NCBI RefSeq assembly: GCF_035084215.1
Contig: NC_090360.1
Location: forward strand, 10,850,001 to 10,914,000
Length of the DNA: 64,000 nt
Direction: 5' to 3'
Source of the DNA: Heptranchias perlo
Taxonomy: Eukaryota
Shown here: positions 1-62,789 of the stretch, one piece after another
Numbering within the stretch: position 1 is the stretch's first letter
How the letters are laid out: every line of letters starts with the position of its first letter
The notes under the pieces: generated by a model
Told to the model about the DNA's origin: nothing
What the model saw: only the letters and a program-made list of their open reading frames with translations
Database searches by the model: none
Program-made: the position numbers and the translations under genes

Positions 1-786
1 TTGTTAAAGGTGAGGTTAAAAGAGATCTCTCGTATTGCGTTTGTTAAAGGTGAGGTTGAAAGCGGTCCAAGGGTATGAGTAAACTTGGCACTTAACCAGG
101 AAATTTTACTTTGGTAGAAGCCCAGTACGAAGTTGAATTGCGCAGACTTTGCATCCACTGCCACTGACCCTGGTGAATTTTTAGGTCTCAAGTTAATTGA
201 ACTTTGGGATCCCTATCTGCACCAGGAAGGCTGCTTTGGTGAGGGGCCCAATCACTGCTACAGGCCTTGAGACACCTGCAGCAGCAGAGGAGGCTGAAGG
301 GGAGAGCCAATTTTCATTCAAAAAATCTTAAATCTCAGTGCTGTGGACTGCAAGTGATCATCCCACAATTGATTGCACTCCTTAACAGGGCCATTTAACA
401 TTTAAATGATCTTCCACACATGAGGAACACGCTGGCATTCCTTACATCCTGTGTTATTATGACAATAATGGAAAATATGACCAATTATGTCACTTCACAA
501 TTGCCACACTCTTTGAACACACTTGCCCATATTCGAATGGAAATATTCAATGGCCGTTGTTACTTCTGGTGGAAAATCCTGGTGGTGACATTGACTGGTG
601 GGGGTATGGTGCCCTGGGCAGCTTTCTGCCTCTGTCTACCCCAGATCTATCCAAATTCAGTCAGAATAACAACGAAAAATCAAGGCTAAGATGTTCAGTC
701 ACTGCAATCAACAAAGCAAGTAGACTCCTGTATCATACTGCTAACTCAGTCGACTATAAACCAGAGGATGTCATGTTGAAACTATA

Positions 787-990
787 ATGTGGAGATGCCG
801 GTGATGGACTGGGGTTGACAATTGTAAACAATTTTACAACACCAAATTATAGTCCAACAAATTTATTTTAAATTTCACAAGCTTTCGGAGGCTTCCTCCT
901 TCCTCAGGTGAATGGTGTGGAAATGAAATTTTCGAATCCTTCGCATTTGTAAATCACAGAACAATGCCTGGTGATTACTGCCCGTTGCAA
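787..990 (-). mobile_element. Penelope-like pLTR copy 1 (with tail and hammerhead)
   Basis: Reverse complement of the repeat at 20965-21095, plus about 80 bp of extra 5' element sequence. Confidence 0.85.
874..912 (-). ncRNA. Minimal type I hammerhead ribozyme motif
   Basis: Minus strand reads TTCAC-CTGAGGA-A-GGAGG-AAG-CCTCC-GAAA-GCT-T-GTGAA: stem I TTCAC/GTGAA, CUGANGA and GAAA cores, stem II, palindromic AGCT stem III. Confidence 0.8.
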
Positions 991-4103: not shown

Positions 4104-4853
4104 CAACAAGAGAGAGTCTAACCACCTCCCCTTGACATTCAACGGCATTACTATCGCCGAATCCCCCACCATCAACATCCTGGGGGGTCACCATTGACCA
4201 GAAACTTAACTGGACCAGCCATATAAATACTGTGGCTACGAGAGCAGGTCAGAGGCTGGGTATTCTGCGGCGAGTGACTCACCTCCTGACTCCCCAAAGC
4301 CTTTCCACCATCTACAAGGCACAAGTCAGGAGTGTGATGGAATACTCTCCACTTGCTTGGATGAGTGCAGCTCCAACAACACTCAAGAAGCTTGACACCA
4401 TCCAAGATAAAGCAACCCACTTGATTGGCACCCCATCCACCACCCTAAACATTCACTCCCTTCACCACCGGCGCACTGTGGCTGCAGTGTGTACCATCCA
4501 CAGGATGCACTGCAGCAACTTGCCAAGGCTTCCTCGACAGCACCTCCCAAACCCGCGACCTCTACCACCTAGAAGGACAAGAGCAGCAGGCACATGGGAA
4601 CAACACCACCTGCACGTGCCCCTCCAAGTCACACACCATCCCGACTTGGAAATATATCGCCGTTCCTTCATCGTCGCTGGGTCAAAATCCTGGAACTCCC
4701 TTCCTAACAGCACTGTGGGAGAACCGTCACCACACGGACTGCAGCGGTTCAAGAAGGCGGCTCACTACCACCTTCTCAAGGGCAATTAGGGATGGGCAAT
4801 AAATGCCGGCCTCGCCAGCGACGCCCACATCCCGTGAATGAATTTTTAAAAAA
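4104..4853 (+). mobile_element. Young CR1-group LINE family B, 5'-truncated
   Basis: ORF 4232-4789 (RT C-terminus ...YKAQVRSVMEYSPLAW...). Near-identical to 50625-51368; shared 3' end GGGCAATAAATGCCGGCCTCGCCAGCGACGCCCACATCCC. Confidence 0.92.
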
Positions 4854-17853: not shown

Positions 17854-17977
17854 ATTGTAAACAATTTTACAACACCAAGTTATAGTCCAACAAATTTATT
17901 TTAAATTCCACAAGCTTTCGGAGGCTTCCTCCTTCGTCAGGTGAACGGTGTGGTTCACCTGACGAAGGAGGAAGCTT
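17854..17977 (-). mobile_element. Penelope-like pLTR copy 2 (tailless, fold-back), nested in the PLE fossil
   Basis: Starts ATTGTAAACAATTTTACAACACC; contains a 23-bp inverted repeat 17924-17946/17953-17975. Confidence 0.88.
17905..17946 (-). ncRNA. Minimal hammerhead ribozyme motif
   Basis: GTTCAC-CTGACGA-AGGAGGAAGCCTCC-GAAA-GCTT-GTGGAAT on the minus strand. Confidence 0.78.
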
Positions 17978-19993: not shown

Positions 19994-20964
19994 GTACGTT
20001 GAAAAGCATTCTAGCGGAAAGCCAACAAACAAGATTATTTTACGTAGAATACATAAATTAACAGAATACAGTCTTCCAGTGAGGTGCATTTATATCCCTC
20101 ACTCTTCATAGCACAAAACAACAAAATAAACAACTCTGCTTCTATTAGAGGCTACACTCACTTGCAAGTGGAAATCCCTGCACTGCAATGAACCTGTTCA
20201 TTTTAAAAGATTAATTAGTATTAGCGCAATGCATTTATGTGTGTCTTCATCACCTCTGATTGCATTTTGTAACATTTATTGCTCCATTCCTCTCGTAGCT
20301 TTTTGAATTAAATACTTGTTTCCTGTTGTATCAACTCACATGGTACTATCGTTATTCTTCTCTTGATTACGCAAAGTCAATTAGATGAGCTCAATTTACT
20401 TAAAGTGTCTTATATGTGTCTGACAGCACACAAAAGTAGCAGCTAGTGGTAAGATTGATAGATGCAGTCAGATGACTATGGGCGAGAATTCTCAATGAAT
20501 TTGCCCATTTTAAGCAAGTTCCTCACTCAAAAACATCAATATCTTTTTAGCTTGGAGCTGGAATCAGGTGGTCTGAAATAAGGAATTGCTTTTCAACTGG
20601 TTGACATTGCAAAATTTTAGCTTCTCCCTCGAGGTCATGTTGCTGGATTATTTTATTTCTTTGTTGCCCTCAAGATTGACAGACTGACTAAAAGCATGCT
20701 TTTATTTGCATGTCAATTTTGATTCTTGGGTTTTAAGCATTTGCATTGAATGAACATGAGCTTTAAGCCCAAGGGCAACTCATTGCATTGTACCAATTAA
20801 GGCTGGTCATTCTGTCTGCCAGTAGAAACAACTGTCGAAGTATGCAGCATGTGGCTGTTCTTCGGTAGATAGATGACCCATGTAGTGAGCCAAGGAATGT
20901 CTGATAGAGGCATGTTGATTGTACCACACATTATTCTGGTTCAATCCTTGACTATCAAATCTGG

Positions 20965-21095
20965 ACATTTACCTGAGGAAGGAGGAAGTCTCCGAAAGCT
21001 TGTGAATTTAAAATAAAATTGCTGGACTATAACTTGGTGTTGTAAAATTGTTTACAATTGTCAACCCCAGTCCATCACCGGCATCTCCACATCAT
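20965..21095 (+). mobile_element. Penelope-like pLTR copy 3 (hammerhead + tail) with TSD
   Basis: Flanked by ATCAAATCTGG at 20954-20964 and 21094-21104 (the AT overlaps the element end). Confidence 0.9.
20967..21007 (+). ncRNA. Minimal type I hammerhead ribozyme motif; predicted cleavage after 21001
   Basis: ATTTAC / CTGAGGA (20973-20979) / GGAGG-AAG-TCTCC / GAAA (20994-20997) / GCT-T / GTGAAT. Confidence 0.8.
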
Positions 21096-21184
21096 CAAAT
21101 CTGGGTAGACCCTGTGCTGTTGTGATACATGCTCCATGGCTTGAAGAAAGTAAAACAAATTATGCACGTATATACTCATCCTGC

Positions 21185-36528: not shown

Positions 36529-37055
36529 CACAAGTCAGGAGTGTGATGGAATACTCTCCACTTGCCTGGATGAGTGCAGCTCCAACAGCACTCAAGAAGC
36601 ACGACACCATCCAGGACAAAGCAACCCGTTTGGCACCCCATCCACCACCCTAAACATTCACTCCCTCCACCACCGGCGCACCGTGGCTGCAGTGCATTAT
36701 CCACAGGATGCACTGCAGCAACTCGCCAAGGCTTCTTCGACAGCACCTCCCAAACCGCGACCTCTACCACCTAGAAGGACAAGGGTAGCATGCACATGGG
36801 AACAACACCACCTGCACGTTCCCCTCCAAGTCACACACCATCCCGACTTGAAAATATATCGCCATTCCTTCATCGGCGTTGGGTTAAAATCCTGGAACTC
36901 CCCACCTCACAGCACTGTGGGAGAACCTTCACCACATGGACTGCAGTGGTTCAAGGCGGCGGCTCACCACCACCTTCTCAAGGGCAATTAGGGATGGGCA
37001 ATAAATGCTGGCCTCGCCAGTGACGCTCGCATCCCATGAACGAGTTAAAAAAAAA
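36529..37055 (+). mobile_element. LINE family B, 5'-truncated
   Basis: QVRSVMEYSPLAWMSAAP...; same 3' end followed by poly(A). Confidence 0.92.
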
Positions 37056-41530: not shown

Positions 41531-42169
41531 TTTTTTTTATTCGTTCGCGGGATGTGGGTGTCGCTGGCGAGGCCAGCATTTATTGCCCATCCCTAATTGC
41601 CCTTGAGAAAGTGGCGGTGAGCCGCCTTCTTGAACCACTGCAGTCCGTGTGGTGAAGGTTCTCCCACAGTGCTGTTAGGGAGGGAGTTCCAGGATTTTGA
41701 CCCAGCGACGATGAAAGAACGGCGATATATTTCCAAGTCGGGATGGTGTGTGACTTGGAGGGGAACGTGCAGGTGGTGTTGTTCCGATGTGCCTGCTGCC
41801 CTTGTCCTTCTAGATGGTAGAGGTCGCGGGTTTGGGAGGTGCTGTCGAAGAAGCCTTGGCGAGTTGCTGCAGTGCATCCTGTGGATGGTACACACTGCAG
41901 CCACAGTGCGCCGGTGGTGAAGGGAGTGAATGTTTAGAGTGGTGGATGTGGTGCCAATTAAGCGGGCTGCTTTGTCTTGGATGGTGTCGAGCTTCTTGAG
42001 TGTTGTTGGAGCTGCACTCATCCAGGCAAATGGAGAGTATTCCATCACACTCCTGACTTGTGCCTTGTAGATGTTGGAAAGGCTTTGGGGAGTCAGGAGG
42101 TGAGTCACTCACTGCAGAATACCCAGCCTCTGACCTGCTCTTGTAGCCACAGTATTTATGTGGCTGGTC
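41531..42169 (-). mobile_element. LINE family B, 5'-truncated
   Basis: ORF 41593-42108 is nearly identical to ORF 4232-4789. Confidence 0.93.
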
Positions 42170-45345: not shown

Positions 45346-45822
45346 AGTTAATGCAACCTACTATTCCAACCTTTGCTACTATTTTTTTTACTTTTAATAA
45401 ACTTGCTTCATAGATTATAGCCTAAGTCACATGGTATAAAAGGGTGATTATTATTCCATTATCCAAAGAGAAAGATTTTGCATCAATTCCAGTGAGAAAA
45501 TTACAGAAATAAGGGTGTCCTGTCCAACTCTGCAACAGTACAATACCAGATATTGTGCCTATAAGATCACACTGCAGTTCGTAGGGATCGATGGGTTCAC
45601 TTACAGGAGAACTCGAGCGTAGAGCATGAAAACGATATCTCTTGCAGGCTGAAAATCAGAAGAGAGAGAGAAAATTACTAAGAAAACTTAATTTCTGCTA
45701 AACAATTACACATTGCTTTATTAAATTCAGAAGCAAAACACATGAAGAATTAATGGAATGGAAGTAAGAGCTGGCTCGATCTGTACTTTTGTCCGTTGAT
45801 GTTCAGTGTCTTGCTGCTTGTA

Positions 45823-45915
45823 ATGATGTGGAGATGCCGGTGAAAGAGGCTACCTCTTTTTGAATTTAAAATAAAATTGCTGGACTATAACTTGGTGTTG
45901 TAAAATTGTTTACAA
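45823..45915. mobile_element. Penelope-like pLTR copy 4, inverted structure with TSD
   Basis: Tail piece (minus) 45823-45843, hairpin filler, body (plus) 45861-45915; TTGCTGCTTGTA at 45811-45822 and 45916-45927. Confidence 0.88.
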
Positions 45916-46869
45916 TTGCTGCTTGTAGGGAGTGTTTGGACAGTATCAGCTTGGATCAAATTTTTATATAAGCCACTGGCTGATCAGCCATCACTTTCTC
46001 ATTAGGAAATGGTTCAGTGGAATATTTCTTGTATCACTTCCCATCATTTGCATTGAAGGTTACAAGTGAGGTGTTTGAATTTCTGAAACTCTGTATGAGA
46101 AGCACTTGACCTTTCTGCACAACCTACTATATCTCTACATTTGCTTGGCTAACTCTGTTTAAACCTCCCATGGGAAGCTTATTGCAATTGCATTATAGCC
46201 ATTTGTCACTAAACACGTTTTAATTGGCCAATCTGTGAATTTTCATCTAAATTGTAGTGTCAGATACAACAGTCAACATGTTTGCACTGCTGATCAGCCC
46301 GTTGTCCTCTCTTGTGTAAGAAGACATGATACAGTGTCTTACATTGCAGCCAATACAGCAGCTGTGCACCTGTCAAGCTTTCTTCCCTTTTGGGTGCTGC
46401 TTTACAAGTCATTTTTAGAGAGGTAAGGATGAGATGATACCATTTTGGCTTGGGAAAGAAAGATTATTGTTAGGCAAACCGCAGTTTACTTTGTAGCATG
46501 TTGATTTTGCTTTATTGATCTATTTATCTGTTCAAAGGCAACCTTTGGAGCAGTAGCTTGATCTTTTGTTTGTATTGTGTGTACCTGCATAGAAAATTTT
46601 TCAATCAATCCTTTCCATTACTGTTCAGCCTGTCCATGACCAAGGATTGAGTAATATTATAGGATGTTGATTTGCTAATATTTATGCAAATTTTTATTTT
46701 GGGATGGTAGGAAACATTAGGAAATAGGGGAGAGAGACAGAAAGGAAAAGAACTGTGCTCGCAGAAGGAATAAACCAAAAGACACTGCAGAGACTTTCAA
46801 TTACTTATTTTATTAACCTAAATTAGCTCCCTGGTAATCTTTAAACAGTCATAAGTATTCCAGTGCAGG

Positions 46870-49072: not shown

Positions 49073-51879
49073 GCCCAGATTTTGCTGGAATGGGGCATCT
49101 CATGGTGTGCCCCGTTAGTTCGACTTTTTCCTTCACCTTTCAGCTCAAATTTTTTGCCCTGCAAGTTGCTGGAAGTGCGAGCTGATAACGGCATGGCGAG
49201 GGCAATGGGGTGTCGGGGACGTTGGTGAACGATGGGACTAACAGTCTATCTCCTTAATCAATGAGATTTAAGGATTGAGAAAGAAACAGAGGAATGGCCA
49301 AGAAGGAATGGCCCGGCATATTCCTCACTCTACCATTACCAACAAGCCAGGGGATCAACCCTGGTTCAATGAGGAGTGTAGAAGAGCATGCCAGGAGCAG
49401 CACCAGGCGTACCTAAAAATGAGGTGCCAACCTGGTGAAGCTACAACACAGGACTACATGCATGCTGAAAACGGAAGCAACATGCTATAGCCAGAGCTAA
49501 GCAATTCCACAACCAACGGATCAGATCAAAGCTCTGCAGTCCTGCCACATCCAGTCGTGAATGGTGGTGGACAATTAAACAACTAACGGGAGGAGGAGGC
49601 TCTGCAAACATCCCCATCCTCAATGACGGCGGAGTCCAGCACGTGAGTGCAAAAGACAAGGCTGAAGCGTTTGCAACCATCTTCAGCCAGAAGTGCCAAG
49701 TGGATGATCCATGTCGGCCTCCTCCCGATATCCCCACCATCACGGAAGCCAGTCTTCAGCCAATTCGATTCACTCCACGTGCTATCAAGAAACGGCTGAG
49801 TGCACTGGATACAGCAAAGGCTATGGGCCCCGACAACATCCCGGCTGTAGTGCTGAAGACTTGTGCTCCAGAACTAACCGCACCTCTAGCCAAGCTGTTC
49901 CAGTACAGCTACAACACTGGCATCTTCCCGACAATGTGGAAAATTGCCCAGGTGTGTCCTGTCCACAAAAAGCAGGACAAATCCAAACCGGTCAATTACT
50001 GCCCTATCAGTCTACTCTCAATCATCAGCAAAGTGATGGAAGGTGTCGTTGACAATGCTATCAAGCGGCACTTACTCACCAATAATCTGCTCACCGATGC
50101 TCAGTTTGGGTTCCGCCAGGACCACTCGGCTCCAGACCTCATTACAGCCTTGGTCCAAACATGGAGAAAAGAGCTGAATTCCAGAGGTGAGGTGAGAGTG
50201 ACTGCTCTTGACATCAAGGCAGCATTTGACCGAGTGTGGCACCAAGGAGCCCTAGTAACATTGAAGTCAATGGGAATCGGGGAAAACTCTCCAGTGGCTG
50301 GAGTCATACCAAGCACAAAGGAAGATGGTAGTGGTTGTTGGAGGCCAATCATCTCAGCCCCAGGACATTGCTGCAGGAGTTCCTCAAGGCAATGTCCTAG
50401 GCCCAACCATCTTCAGCTGCTTCATCAATGACCTTCCCTCCATCATAAGGTCAGAAATGGGGATGTTCGCTGATGATTGCACAGTGTTCAGTTCCATTCG
50501 CAACCCCTCAGATAATGAAGCAGTCCGAGCCTGCATGCAGCAAGACCTGGACAACATCAAGGCTTGGGCTCAAAAGTGGCAAGTAACATTCGTGTCAGAC
50601 AAGTGCCAGGCAATGACCATCTGCAACAAGAGAGAGTCTAACCTCCCCTTGACATTCAACGGCATTACCATCACCGAATCCCCCACCATCAACATCCTGG
50701 GGGTCACCATTGACCAGAAACTTAACTGGACCAGCCATATAAATACTGTGGCTACAAGAGCAGGTCAGAGGCTGGGTATTCTGCAGCGAGTGACTCACCT
50801 CCTGACTCCCCAAAGCCGTTCCACCATCTACAAGGCACAAGTCAGGAGTGTGATGGAATACTCTCCACTTGCCTGGATGCGTGCAGCTCCAACAACACTC
50901 AAGAAGCTTGACACCATCCAGGACAAAGCAGCCCGCTTGATTGGCACCCCATCCACCACCCTAAACAGTCACTCCCTTCACCACTGGTGCACAGTGGCTG
51001 CAGTGTGTACCGTCCACAGGATGCACTGCAGCAACTCGCCAAAGCTTCTTCGACAGCACCTCCCAAACCCGCGACCTCTACCACCTGGAAGGACAAGAGC
51101 AGCAGGTACATGGGAACAACACCACCTGCACGTCCCCCTCCAAGTCACACACCATCCCGACTAGGAAATATATCGCCGTTCCTTCATCGTCGCAGGGTCA
51201 AAATCCTGGAACTCCCTTCCTAACAGCACTGTGGGAGAACCTTCACCGCATGGACTGCAGCGGTTCAAGGCAGCGGCTCACCACCACCTTCTCGAGGGCA
51301 ATTAGGGATGGGCAATAAATACCGGCCTCGCCAGCGACGCCCACATCCCATGAACGAATAAAAAAAAATAGGGTGGATTAGGATCAAATCAGGTACAGAA
51401 AGAGAAATAAATAAATAGAGGGAAAGAGCAATTAGTTTAAGAGAGAGAGAAAAAAAAGGCAGTGAGAAACAAATTTTAAAATTTTATATTTTAAAAAATC
51501 TCTTAACAACTATTTACTACCTGGAGGAATGAGGCTCCACAGTTTAAATTATTCCCTTTCTGGGCCAGTTGGCATTGCAGGAACATTAAACTCCTCACTA
51601 AGAAGGTACTTACGCTGTTAAGTAGCAGCCCTAACTTTCTGCTGCGAGTTTAATTGGCAATTAATGTGCAAATGCAGCAATTTCTTGAAACTCTCGGGAA
51701 GGTTGAGGGCGAGCTGCCGTTTTCACAACGCTAACGGCGGAGCGGCACAAATCGTCCAGCAACGTGACGATTGCAATTCACGGGGTAGCTCTTTCTTGCC
51801 ACAATTTGCTCGATTATTTCCACATTAATATTGGCGAGCGCCATTAAACCCGCCATTATTTTGGCACCAAATCTGGGCC
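49073..51879. mobile_element. Non-autonomous DNA transposon (TIRs GCCCAGATTT / AAATCTGGGC) split by LINE family B
   Basis: Complementary termini near 49073 and 51879; the right arm is homologous to 52290-52739. Confidence 0.55.
49308..51368 (+). mobile_element. LINE family B, longest copy (RT domain, one frameshift near 50280, stop at 51162)
   Basis: KAMGPDNIP, NYCPISLLS, QFGFR, LDIKAAFDRVWH, GVPQGNVLGP, FADD; poly(A) end. Confidence 0.95.
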
Positions 51880-58424: not shown

Positions 58425-58539
58425 ACTATTTCAGCATCAGTACATCAATAAATTCAATCAAGTCCCACTTGGAAACTTGTTAAGCTTGCAGTATACCTCC
58501 AGAGTCGGGCCCCGTCTTGATTCCGGAGAGCAGCGATGG
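58425..58539 (+). other. Candidate 115-nt internal exon of an unknown host gene
   Basis: TACTAAC at 58363-58369, long pyrimidine tract, TGCAG acceptor, TGG|GTGAGT donor; one open frame. Confidence 0.4.
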
Positions 58540-59859
58540 GTGAGTCCTTGGTGGAAGTGGTGTCTCACCATTTGGGTTCAGTGCTGAATGCAGTATAATT
58601 CCAGTGCGGTGTCAAACCAGCATCAAAAAGTACTCAGAGGGTCATTGGCATCTCCTGGGAACTTACTGAACCTACCGAGAGTTGAGTTTGGTCATCTTTC
58701 CTCATCCTCCCATGAAGGCTAGGCACCTGTTCCTTTTCTCCTCTATGAGTCACCTTGGGGCTTTTTCTATGTTAAAAGCATTATATAATTGCAAGCTGCT
58801 GCTGACTAATGCTTCGAGAGCCTGAATGTTTAAATGTTACCGCTGGGAGGAGGATTTCTGCACATACCTGTAATTACCATCAGAAAATCAAAAGTAAACT
58901 TCTGTAAGCATTGCACAGCCTCAGATTGAAATGAGTATTAAAATGTCTTATTAAATATTGAGACAAATGAATATGCCAGTGGAGGAGGCAGAACAGCTTT
59001 TTTTTTAGCATTTTTGATGCTCGGATCTGATCTGATTTGAATATTTCTCTGCTAGCTCTGGTATTACCAGAATGGACTCTATCAGAGCTGGTTGAACATA
59101 TCCGTGTATATGCATGGTGATTTTTCAAGGCTCTGCTTCTGTTGTGGAGCCTTTCTAGACAGGAGTGTAGGTCGCCTATCGAGCTTTATAGCCCCGTCTC
59201 TGACCTGCACTTCTGTCTAGTAAGGTTCTAAGTTAGGGGCAAAGACTCACAAAATAATCCCGATAATGAATTGAAATAATTAATTAAATCAGAATGATGC
59301 AGAATTAAAGTGATTCTCCAGGATTGATGGTGAGGACTTCGATTGGTTCATGTAAGGTTAGAAATTTTATTTAATAACTTTTGAGACCCCCCCCGATTTT
59401 TACATTTCCAATTTAAATCTATTCGGGAGGTCAAACATTGATTTGATAACTGTTTTGCCAAATATCTCTGAAAATAGTGAAGGAGTGGAATGGAAAGTAC
59501 AAATTTTAAAACGCTTAAAGATGGAGGGGAATGAAGTGGAAGATGAATTCGAGAAATGACCAAGAAAATGGGGGAAATTAGTAAAAGTCAACGTATGGAC
59601 CAGAGGGCTCCAGAATGCCCCAATGGAAAGATGAAATAATGTACCTGCAGTTTGCATTGAGCTTGGTTGGAACAGTTAAGAGGCAAAGGATGGAAGGGTC
59701 AGAGTGGGAATGGAAGGGGAATTAAAGTGGTGAGCCACAGGAAGATGAGGATCGTACTTGTGGACAGATTGGAGCCATTCAGCAAAGCAGTCCTTCCAAC
59801 TGAGTGTGATCCGCCCAATGCATGGGATGACCACACTGTGACCAATGAGCATATTATAG

Positions 59860-59985
59860 TGTAAACAATTTTACAACACCAAGTTATAGTCCAGCAATTT
59901 TATTTTAAATTCACAAGCTTTCGGAGATTTCCTCCTTCCTCAGGCAAATGTCAACCCCAGTCCATCACCGGCATCTCCACATCAT
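59860..59985. mobile_element. Penelope-like pLTR copy 5, inverted structure with TSD
   Basis: Body and hammerhead on minus (59860-59950), tail on plus (59949-59985); CATATTATAGTG at 59850-59861 and 59983-59994. Confidence 0.9.
59909..59949 (-). ncRNA. Minimal hammerhead ribozyme motif
   Basis: ATTTGC-CTGAGGA-AGGAGGAAATCTCC-GAAA-GCTT-GTGAAT on the minus strand. Confidence 0.78.
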
Positions 59986-60634
59986 ATTATAGTGGAAGAA
60001 GCACTTATAAATTGCTGGCTCACGCAAAAGGAGTGCTTGGGGCCTTAGGAATTGATTGGTTGCTTATTTATACTTTCAGTTTGTTGCAATTGTCTGGTAA
60101 ATTCCAAATAAATTGTATAAATTCCGAATAAATAAGTTTGGAAGACAAGTGTAAATGGATTATACTGAGCCATTTATATGCATGCACTCACAAATTCACT
60201 TGTAATTACTTTACCTCTGATGAACAAATGAACTGGAATTAAAACCGTGTTATCAGGCATATTAGCACCTTGGTGCTGTCAATGCACAAGCTAATCTTTG
60301 AAGAGGATATTCGTTAATGAAATTACAAAAGACCTGATGCTTCACATGAATCTGGAGTGATGAATCACATGGAAAAGCCTGGGACCAGTTTCGAGGACTC
60401 GCTGCAATTTTCAAGTAACCAGTCCACACAAATGTAGTTCCTCGGTTCATGTTCAAAGTGCATTGAAAATGAAGCTTTGAGCTTTTGAGCCTGGTGCTTT
60501 TCACCAACAGGATGTGTAAAACTACAGACACTGTAGTAATTAATATGACCACTGCATCTCAGCTCCTTCAAGCAGTTTTAATCAGTGTGCTGTTAATAAG
60601 ACTCCTCTTTTTAGTGTTGTAAAACAGAGCAGAT

Positions 60635-61010
60635 AAAAGGTTATTTTCACTGGGGCAGAGAAGGCTACAAGCAGATTTAATAGAGGCATTTAAAACTTTG
60701 GAGGGTGACTAGGGAAAGATTATTTCCTCTGGTTGGGGAGTCAGTGACAAGGCCAATAATTTAAGATGGCTGCTGAGATTGAAGAGGTGATCAGAGAAAT
60801 TTCTTTCTGCAAGAGGATTATTGAAACACGGATGCTTTGCCACAAGGAATAGTTGCATCTTCTAAAGGAAAAGTGGATAATTATTTGAAGTAACGGAAGG
60901 TACAGGGCTATGGGCAGTGGCATTGATTTTGGATTGTTCTAAAAAAGAACCAGCACAGACCTGATGGGCTGACTGGCCTCCCCCTGTGCTATAAATGTCT
61001 ATAGTTCTAA
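60635..61010 (+). mobile_element. Old CR1 3' fragment
   Basis: LFSLGQRRLQADLIEAFK-like translation; tail GATGGGCTGACTGGCCTCC...CTATAGTTCTA. Confidence 0.75.
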
Positions 61011-62177
61011 GAAGCAAAAGAAAAATGAACAGAAGGAGAAGTTGCTCATGTGCAGTATCTTGCTATGTGTACACTTTTCAGCAATGTTTTACAATGGTGT
61101 GCCCTGTTAAAGCTTTGGATTCCCCAATACAAATTTGATTGTGGAGTACAAGTGTATCTAAATACTGTGGATGCTCAGAATAAAAGTTTGCTTGGAATGA
61201 TATAAGTCATTGAAAATGGCAGCTAAATTAACCCTGTATTGTTTCTAATCACTTCAGTTCTTTGTCACTGACAAGGTATCATAGTATTCTGCAATGCTGT
61301 ATCCACCTGCAGCAACTATGCACACACAAACTCTTGTGCGATATACATTGAAGAACATGGTGCTGGCTGGAAAGCAGACCTGAAATCAGATAAAACCACA
61401 ATGTAATATTCGGTGTGCATTTTGATTTCCCCTCACAGGTTGTTTACATACAATTTTGGTTCACGTTGTGCTTTCTTCAGATCCCCACTACTGTCCAATG
61501 CTGAATAAATCCCTTTTTCAGCTGGGATGTGTCCTTATGAAGGCCCTTCCTCTGCCTCTTCCCTCGTCCTATAACCCAACATATAAAGCATATCATAACC
61601 TGGCTGAGAATTGTCAAAATTGAATGAAGGTAAATGCACTTAAATCACAAATGTCATTGCGATGCAGATGGGAATCCTTGGTTCTACGATGCAGTACTCT
61701 ATAATAAAGTTATGAAGCTGAGCTACATTTCAGATCTATACTTGAAAATGCGTTAATACTGTAGTGTGCTAGACTTCCGTTTAGTTACTTGCTAACTTTC
61801 CTGTCTCAAGTCATTTAGGTTGAATCTTTACTTGTGAGTTTCCAAAGACCGTTTTTGAAAGCAATTTCACACGTTGTCAATTATCGTGCTGCTCTGTGAC
61901 CATGTGATTGTGAAGTATCCAGGTGGATGTTGAATTCACATCCCCTACGGGTGTCACTCACCTGCCATTTTCTCCTTATGCTTTTTTTTTTGAAACACCT
62001 CGTCACGTGCCACCCACAATTCCCCATTTGAGAGGACATTCAAGTGATCCACTTCTTGCCCTCAGTAAATGCTTCTTTGCCGTTGGCTGGTCAGAGTTCT
62101 GTGAGAACTTCTGATTTTCACTCCCTTTGCTCTGTGCCTCCTCTAACAGTCTATGGAACGATGGGGAGTACAGTATT

Positions 62178-62789
62178 AAGAAAGAAAGACGTGCAATCCT
62201 TTCACGGCCTCAGGACGTCCCGAAGCGCTTTACAATCAATGAAGTACTTTTTGAAGTGTAGCCACTGTTGTAAATGTAGGAAATGCAGCAGCTAATTTAC
62301 GTGCAATAAGGTCCCACAAACAACCATGTGATAATGACCAGATAATCTGTTCTAGCGGTTTTGGTTGAGGGATAAATATTGGCCAGGACACCGGGGAGAA
62401 CTCCCCTGTTCTTCAAAATAGTGGCCGTGGGATCTTTTACGTCCACCTGAGAGGGCAGACGGGGCCTCGGTTTAACGTCTCATCCGAAAGACGGCACTCC
62501 AATGCAGTACTGTCGGAGGTATCAGCCTGGATTTTGTGCTCAATTCTCTGGAGTGGGACTTGAAGCCACAACCTTCTACTCAGAGATGAGGGTCAAAATC
62601 CTGGAACTCCCTTCCTAACAGCACTGTGGGAGAACCGTCACCACACGGACTGCAGCGGTTCAAGAAGGCGGCTCACCACCACCTTCTCGAGGGCAATTAG
62701 GGATGGGCAATAAATGCCGGCCTCGCCAGCGACGCCTACATCCCGTGAACGAATAAAAAAAAAAGACCCACTGAGCCACGGCTGATACC
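62178..62789 (-). mobile_element. DeuSINE (SacSINE1-like) with head split by a LINE family B 3' end
   Basis: Body 62178-62589; head remainder CCACTGAGCCACGGCTGATAC at 62765-62789. Confidence 0.9.
62590..62764 (+). mobile_element. LINE family B, short 3' end with poly(A)
   Basis: Matches 4680-4845. Confidence 0.92.

Follow-up and report, generated by a model that had tools for sequence, protein, structure and literature searches.

The standard anatomy of Penelope-like element (PLE) insertions is a pair of arms arranged head to head, with a tail at just one end. In L1 twin priming, the first priming takes place at poly(A), and the internal site is freely variable and chosen by target complementarity. 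Twin priming yields inverted fragments with an internal deletion, bounded by target-site duplications (TSDs), and in the L1 data presented in PMC2837659 twin priming and dual priming are inseparable. For PLEs, insertions have been described in which an inverted, truncated copy lies adjacent to the element and the tail is found on one end, with resolution by the endonuclease put forward as a guess (PMC8557442); the same anatomy is described in PMC3846280, where self-priming is proposed for the head-to-head arms. The inverted arms depicted in these two reports overlap widely.

The biochemistry of one such element, Poseidon of Anolis carolinensis (PAc), has been worked out in vitro (PMC11167929). 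According to that report, reverse transcription by PAc starts internally at two sites bracketing the tail, and the enzyme, for which a dimer is predicted, nicks and extends both strands with no difference between them. The ribozymes of PLEs are usually minimal hammerheads without helix III (PMC6155905). As far as their accessible text goes, PMC2377424 and PMC12910113 add nothing on priming.

Here, we describe a short repeat of which one copy is a real and unusually clean example of this known PLE anatomy, and we compare its ends, arms and junctions with the systems described above.

Results

A putative Penelope-like end module present in five copies

The window, that is the whole 64,000-nucleotide stretch of DNA that was analysed, consists of repeat-rich, animal-type DNA with a GC content of about 0.41. 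BLAST of the window against itself revealed five copies of a short repeat (about 783-985, 17854-17975, 20965-21095, 45823-45918 and 59860-59985, referred to as copies 1 to 5; Table 1), and a mismatch-tolerant scan of the window for weaker copies returned just three isolated single 20-mer matches. Positions within the repeat are numbered on copy 3, a colinear unit of 131 nt in which the predicted hammerhead cut falls after position 37, the last A of GTTTACA is position 92 and the tail comprises positions 95-131. Two subfamilies can be distinguished, one formed by copies 3, 4 and 5 (identical at 84/85 positions, for the bodies of copies 3 and 5, and at 56/57) and the other by copies 1 and 2. The 37-nt tail (95-131) is colinear in copies 1 and 3, missing in copy 2, and carried on the opposite arm in copies 4 (its last 21 nt) and 5. 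Three of the five copies in the window are inverted, and TSDs of 11-12 nt are present in three of the five.

Four of the five copies contain CTGA(G/C)GA, a 5-bp stem II, GAAA, GCTT and a stem I of 5-6 bp. A pattern scan based on a putative hammerhead core motif gave four matches in the window, all within this repeat family, compared with a mean of 0 in 30 shuffles. Rfam returned no match at gathering score in the window and four weak matches over copy 1, none of them to a hammerhead. With a minimal hammerhead-like motif, an optional 37-nt tail, inverted arms and TSDs of 11-12 nt, the repeat is, as judged by these sequence features, a putative Penelope-like pLTR fragment, or end module of a Penelope-like element. 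No open reading frame (ORF) is joined to the young repeat, and none of the window copies extends into one. A search of public collections found 0 further copies in metagenome contigs (two patterns) and 0 in viral contigs.

Table 1. Coordinates of the repeat copies in the window and of the features of copy 5.
Feature	Coordinates	Strand	Remarks
Copy 1	783..985	-	About 200 nt, the longest of the colinear copies with tail; TSD not found; reference for contig mapping
Copy 2	17854..17975	.	Tail-less body arm on minus (17854-17953), then 22-nt plus-strand arm repeating the 5' part of the body arm; no TSD
Copy 3	20954..21104	+	Colinear 131-nt unit with tail (20965-21095) inside 11-nt TSD ATCAAATCTGG
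Copy 4	45811..45927	.	Minus-strand tail arm 45823-45843 (positions 111-131), filler 45844-45857 and plus-strand body arm 45861-45918 (positions 39-96), all within a 12-nt TSD
Older Penelope-like EN-coding remnant	59574..59849	-	Insertion target of copy 5; 67-73% alike to the copy 2 flank
Copy 5, left TSD	59850..59861	+	CATATTATAGTG; last 2 nt common with the tail-less end
Copy 5, body arm	59860..59952	-	Copy-3 positions 1-92, 2 mismatches, 92 nt; 3' end (proximal start zone) faces outward; 5' end at hammerhead stem I edge
Copy 5, inner hairpin	59860..59877	-	GTAAA-ATTG-TTTAC; 3' base is the proximal start zone; predicted fold, from copy 3 and copy 1 equivalents
Copy 5, minimal hammerhead-like motif	59915..59950	-	CTGAGGA, stem II, GAAA, GCTT, 6-bp stem I; pattern scan; predicted cut after 59915
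Copy 5, tail arm	59949..59985	+	Positions 95-131 exact; 91-131 (from 59945) with 1 mismatch; last 3 nt common with TSD
Copy 5, right TSD	59983..59994	+	CATATTATAGTG; exact 12-nt match to left TSD

Copy 5 is split cleanly into two outward-facing arms

A sequence-only reading of this DNA had described copy 5 as a tail on the plus strand with the rest of the repeat inverted from GTTTACA, with about 2 nt lost and with both outward ends overlapping the TSD. The alignment of the two arms to copy 3 agrees with this description: summed, the arms make up the copy 3 unit with about 0-2 nt missing and no clear duplication, and both 3' ends point outward. The tail arm, 37-41 nt long, stops at or before the internal zone at which the body arm ends. 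A TSD of 12 nt was reached by 0 of 3000 random flank pairs.

Both overlaps with the target are present and differ in their expectation by chance. CAT is common to the tail end and the TSD, and an overlap of 3 nt has a null rate of 2.4%; TG is common to the GTTTACA end and the TSD, and 64% of random targets would show an overlap of at least 2 nt somewhere within a zone of 9 nt. At the internal end, copy 5 overlaps its target by 2 nt and copy 4 by 3 nt. The TGTC microhomology proposed for the inner junction amounts to 4 nt when measured against copy 3, the fourth base being part of copy 3's own TSD, and shrinks to 2 nt with copy 1 as the reference and to 0 with copy 2.

Inner junctions vary and only the outward-facing ends recur

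As previously claimed, both kinds of outward end are found again in copy 4, which lies within a TSD of 12 nt, and copy 2 was found to end at GTTTACAAT. The idea of a fixed inner breakpoint did not survive the comparison: the tail arm of copy 5 starts at 91-95, that of copy 4 at 111, followed by 14-17 nt of filler. The arms of copy 4 are non-overlapping and its internal loss is at least 14 nt, plus the filler; its body arm begins 1 nt past the predicted hammerhead cut. A resemblance of this filler to a piece of stem II (10/11 nt match) was dropped, as 25 of 300 random 14-mers score equally.

Three twin-priming insertions had been counted, of which copy 2 must be withdrawn: it is without a tail arm and without a TSD, and its second arm duplicates part of the first. 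TSD-bounded, inverted, non-overlapping fragments with internal loss are thus found in copies 5 and 4 and not in copy 2, so that the tail-plus-internal configuration occurs in only two copies and a clean split in only one. Within copy 2, the second arm (17954-17977) ends in GGAAGC followed by TT, which corresponds either to a hammerhead-cut end after a 10-nt slip between AAGC words or to simple truncation. A substitution common to the two arms of copy 2 was considered as a private marker and rejected, the variant being present in about 28% of the mapped contig depth.

Taken together, the inner junction varies among the inverted copies and just the outward-facing ends recur. A single pre-inverted master for all inverted copies, the outcome that would have explained their shared shape by descent, is excluded because the inner junctions differ and the inverted copies span two subfamilies.

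The internal start is a narrow zone at a predicted hairpin

The tail-less end lies at positions 90-92 in copy 5, 94 in copy 2 and 93-96 in copy 4. It is therefore a zone of about 7 nt (90-96) and not one base, and the ranges of copies 4 and 5 do not overlap. Accordingly, what remains of the single programmed priming site that had been proposed is a recurring internal start zone, seen in three of the five copies and at other loci. The proposal had further assigned this site to second-strand priming. PMC11167929 reports no difference between top and bottom strand in vitro, at least in its account of the PAc reactions, and for this reason the site is not regarded as specifically serving the second strand.

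The predicted stem-loop at the internal zone has a z of -2.64 (1/200 shuffles) in copy 3 and of -1.60 (14/200) in copy 1. Further downstream, position 111 adjoins an outer helix in the centroid fold of copy 1; the best fold of copy 3 uses another outer helix, in which 111 is not the helix base. Two sequences stop at position 111, namely the tail arm of copy 4 (window 45843) and an unrelated contig joint (copy 1, 804 to 880), and a pause of the reverse transcriptase (RT) inside the tail is possible there.

Contigs from other loci reproduce the ends of the repeat

Contigs from two DNA runs (11,254 and 11,381) and from two presumed RNA runs (2,335 and 2,376) were mapped on copy 1, with contig joints taken at 85% likeness and with sides shorter than 30 nt, which makes them weak. 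In a listing of 32 contig pieces, beyond which lie 28,089 further pieces and 444 loose ends, four rows, representing about two loci, pass from a long flank into positions 94 and 92. Nine distinct joints are listed, two of them at positions 96 and 95, five within 5 nt of the predicted hammerhead cut (between 878 and 879 of copy 1; window 874-881) and two elsewhere than the zone or the predicted cut. A strand change would have taken up the letters in between, and we therefore infer that the joints at 96 and 95 are same-strand tandems, which appear to use the internal zone. No joint among those listed is labelled as a strand change, copy 5's own included, and the set has little power for inversions.

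The 5' side of the repeat is delimited in a similar manner. In each DNA run, 40-41 loose contig ends with unrelated flanks cluster at the edge of hammerhead stem I (copy 1 911-914), and the same edge is the start of copy 3 (20965), of the copy 5 body arm (59950-59952) and of the second arm of copy 2 (17954). The joints near the predicted cut, weak singly, together with the body-arm start of copy 4 suggest that the RT either jumps to the ends of cleaved RNA or runs off them. For PAc, no RNA-seq read is reported to end at the hammerhead cut (PMC11167929).

At the opposite end, the consensus of 13 loose ends (run X6, copy 1 787) suggests a G after the final CAT, with an agreement of only 0.46, and the tail may end on the ATG of the ORF. 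No RNA run containing the copy 5 region is among those listed.

Copies 2 and 5 are inserted in older remnants

Copy 2 sits within an older Penelope-like remnant, between the parts coding for RT and for EN. Its flank matches Pfam GIY-YIG at E=0.005, which is below the curated cut-off, and the RT piece beside it has no Pfam match. This old remnant appears to be without the stretch between the RT and EN parts. The RT/EN remnants that adjoin copies 2 and 5 represent older targets and are not parts of the young repeat.

The tail-less arms of copies 2 and 5 lie on the same strand of two separate old EN remnants, with junctions (17853/17854 and 59861/59862) that differ by about 4 nt when the remnants are aligned; no further remnant of that EN region was found in the window. 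The shared strand and near-same junction make a target-site preference possible. The window also contains young LINE-like 3' fragments, 90-96% alike (4183-4853, 36529-37055, 41531-42169, 50699-51369 and 62458-62764), as well as other dispersed repeat families.

Discussion

Relation to described systems

The repeat resembles PAc, as reported, in that two recurrent 3' ends bracket a tail of 30-40 nt, the upstream start may fall within a stem-loop, as predicted, on the downstream side of the hammerhead, and both strands are extendable. Unlike PAc, it is without an ATG at stem II, and no ORF or clade is tied to it. The proposal that a programmed internal start accounts for the optional tail describes an established mechanism, and is not new, having been published in 2024 (PMC11167929).

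With the canonical EN+ PLE insertions illustrated in PMC8557442 and, for Pen2a_Av, in PMC3846280, the locus shares head-to-head arms, a tail on one end and a variable TSD, the latter being 11-12 nt here versus 8-10 nt in the rotifer examples shown. It departs from them in that the arms of copies 4 and 5 are non-overlapping, whereas the published arms overlap over most of the pLTR. The likeness to L1 twin or dual priming, as characterized in PMC2837659, consists of TSD-bounded inverted fragments, a small internal loss and outer ends that are putative priming sites; in contrast to L1, there is no poly(A) and the internal start is held to an element-set zone of about 7 nt (90-96). Copy 5 would work like twin priming, but not of the L1 type.

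A model for copy 5

We interpret copy 5 as a minimal head-to-head insertion in which reverse transcription of element RNA started from both 3' ends of a staggered 12-nt cut, one at the tail end and the other some 37 nt upstream, in the internal zone, with a single RNA molecule as the most likely template for both, and we assign this reading a probability of about 0.5. Under this model, the staggered cut would leave two 3' ends. The bottom-strand end would pair with CAU at the tail end and copy 37-41 nt, and the top-strand end would pair with CA at the hairpin base and copy 92 nt, as far as the edge of the hammerhead. The first RT would stop where the second had started, and repair would join the two cDNA ends. 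The start zone would be programmed and strand-agnostic.

One RNA is the simplest reason for arms that sum to one unit and for tail arms that are short: the tail arms are at most 41 nt in both TSD-flanked inverted copies (2/2), and five other long arms measure about 58-200 nt. The fit of one-RNA twin priming is good for copy 5 and loose for copy 4, and the model rests on one or two copies. Several observations speak against a single RNA. Judging from the published arms, which overlap (PMC3846280, PMC8557442), and from those of copy 2, which overlap too, tail arms are not, as a rule, cut short by a proximal primer. The zone is located at the base of a predicted hairpin, so that a stall alone would end the arm there. 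Finally, the proximal 2-nt overlap is not above chance and the inner microhomology depends on the reference copy.

Dual priming on two RNAs, which we consider rather unlikely, would yield an identical product; each subunit of the dimer would bring its own RNA, one started at the tail and one internally, the short tail arm of copy 5 then being the result of an RT stall at the hairpin base. Overlapping inverted pLTRs are the norm in the insertions published in PMC3846280 and PMC8557442, and the L1 data of PMC2837659 do not separate the two modes of priming. The location of the internal zone at the base of the inner hairpin and the stops of the copy 4 arm and of one contig joint at 111, beside the outer helix of the copy 1 centroid fold, are likewise in line with stalling. 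Nevertheless, copies 1 and 3 continue across the hairpin, the best fold of copy 3 places no helix base at 111, and arms that sum to one unit would require a coincidence.

Fold-back self-priming, or endonuclease resolution of an intermediate, as the source of both the inverted arm and the one-sided tail has been modelled in PMC3846280 and PMC8557442, respectively, and seems improbable for copy 5. Fold-back predicts a duplicated arm, which is what the overlapping arms of copy 2 look like, but the arms of copies 4 and 5 are non-overlapping; a resolution step is unneeded given that start mapping in vitro explains the tail, as PMC11167929 describes it for PAc.

We give no greater credence to the possibility that copy 5 derives from a master that was inverted beforehand, or that a colinear copy underwent inversion in place once it had been inserted. 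The 5' end of copy 3 does agree with the inner junction of copy 5, sharing 8 of the 9 bases that precede the CTGA core, and the near identity of the two bodies noted above would suit either version. A master, however, has to be reconciled with the different inner junctions of copies 2, 4 and 5 across two subfamilies, with the 40-41 loose ends at the edge of the hammerhead, whose consensus does not carry on into the tail, and with a 5' truncation that would need to fall exactly at the recurrent start zone. As for inversion in place, a simple flip between the GACA/TGTC repeats would retain AT, which is absent at the left junction.

An assembly artefact, conceivable for a short high-copy repeat with no strand-change joint among the joints listed, is very improbable in view of the exact 12-nt TSD and of four DNA runs of one sample, perhaps the window's own source sample, that contain 0.99 of 312 sampled words over 58500-61500.

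Implications for Penelope integration

Extending priming of both cut ends on one RNA beyond copy 5, we tentatively raise the possibility, which we hold to be doubtful, that the integration of Penelope elements is inherently double-ended. Both strands would be nicked by a dimeric enzyme, which would prime one RNA at two programmed start sites at once, and the head-to-head shape and one-sided tail would be a single phenomenon. Copy 5 would then be an RNA of about 131 nt copied in two halves, and hammerhead-cleaved RNA ends would serve as landing points for RT jumps.

The main explanation is already in print (2024); the unpublished remainder, namely the use of both sites on one RNA within a single event, is plausible. 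The main text of the PAc paper (PMC11167929) describes neither the joint use of both sites in one insertion nor a link to head-to-head arms. Among the titles and abstracts searched, with most subscription papers falling outside, we found no PLE account that has a single RNA primed at the two sites during one event; the supplements of PMC11167929 may bear on this point.

On the origin of the head-to-head arms and one-sided tail of PLEs, the 2013 and 2021 papers make differing guesses, and the 2024 biochemistry explains the tail and not the inversion. To these the window adds one clean example, not proof. Priming of a single RNA at the two start sites, if it takes place, would give the inversion and the one-sided tail of Penelope-like elements one cause.
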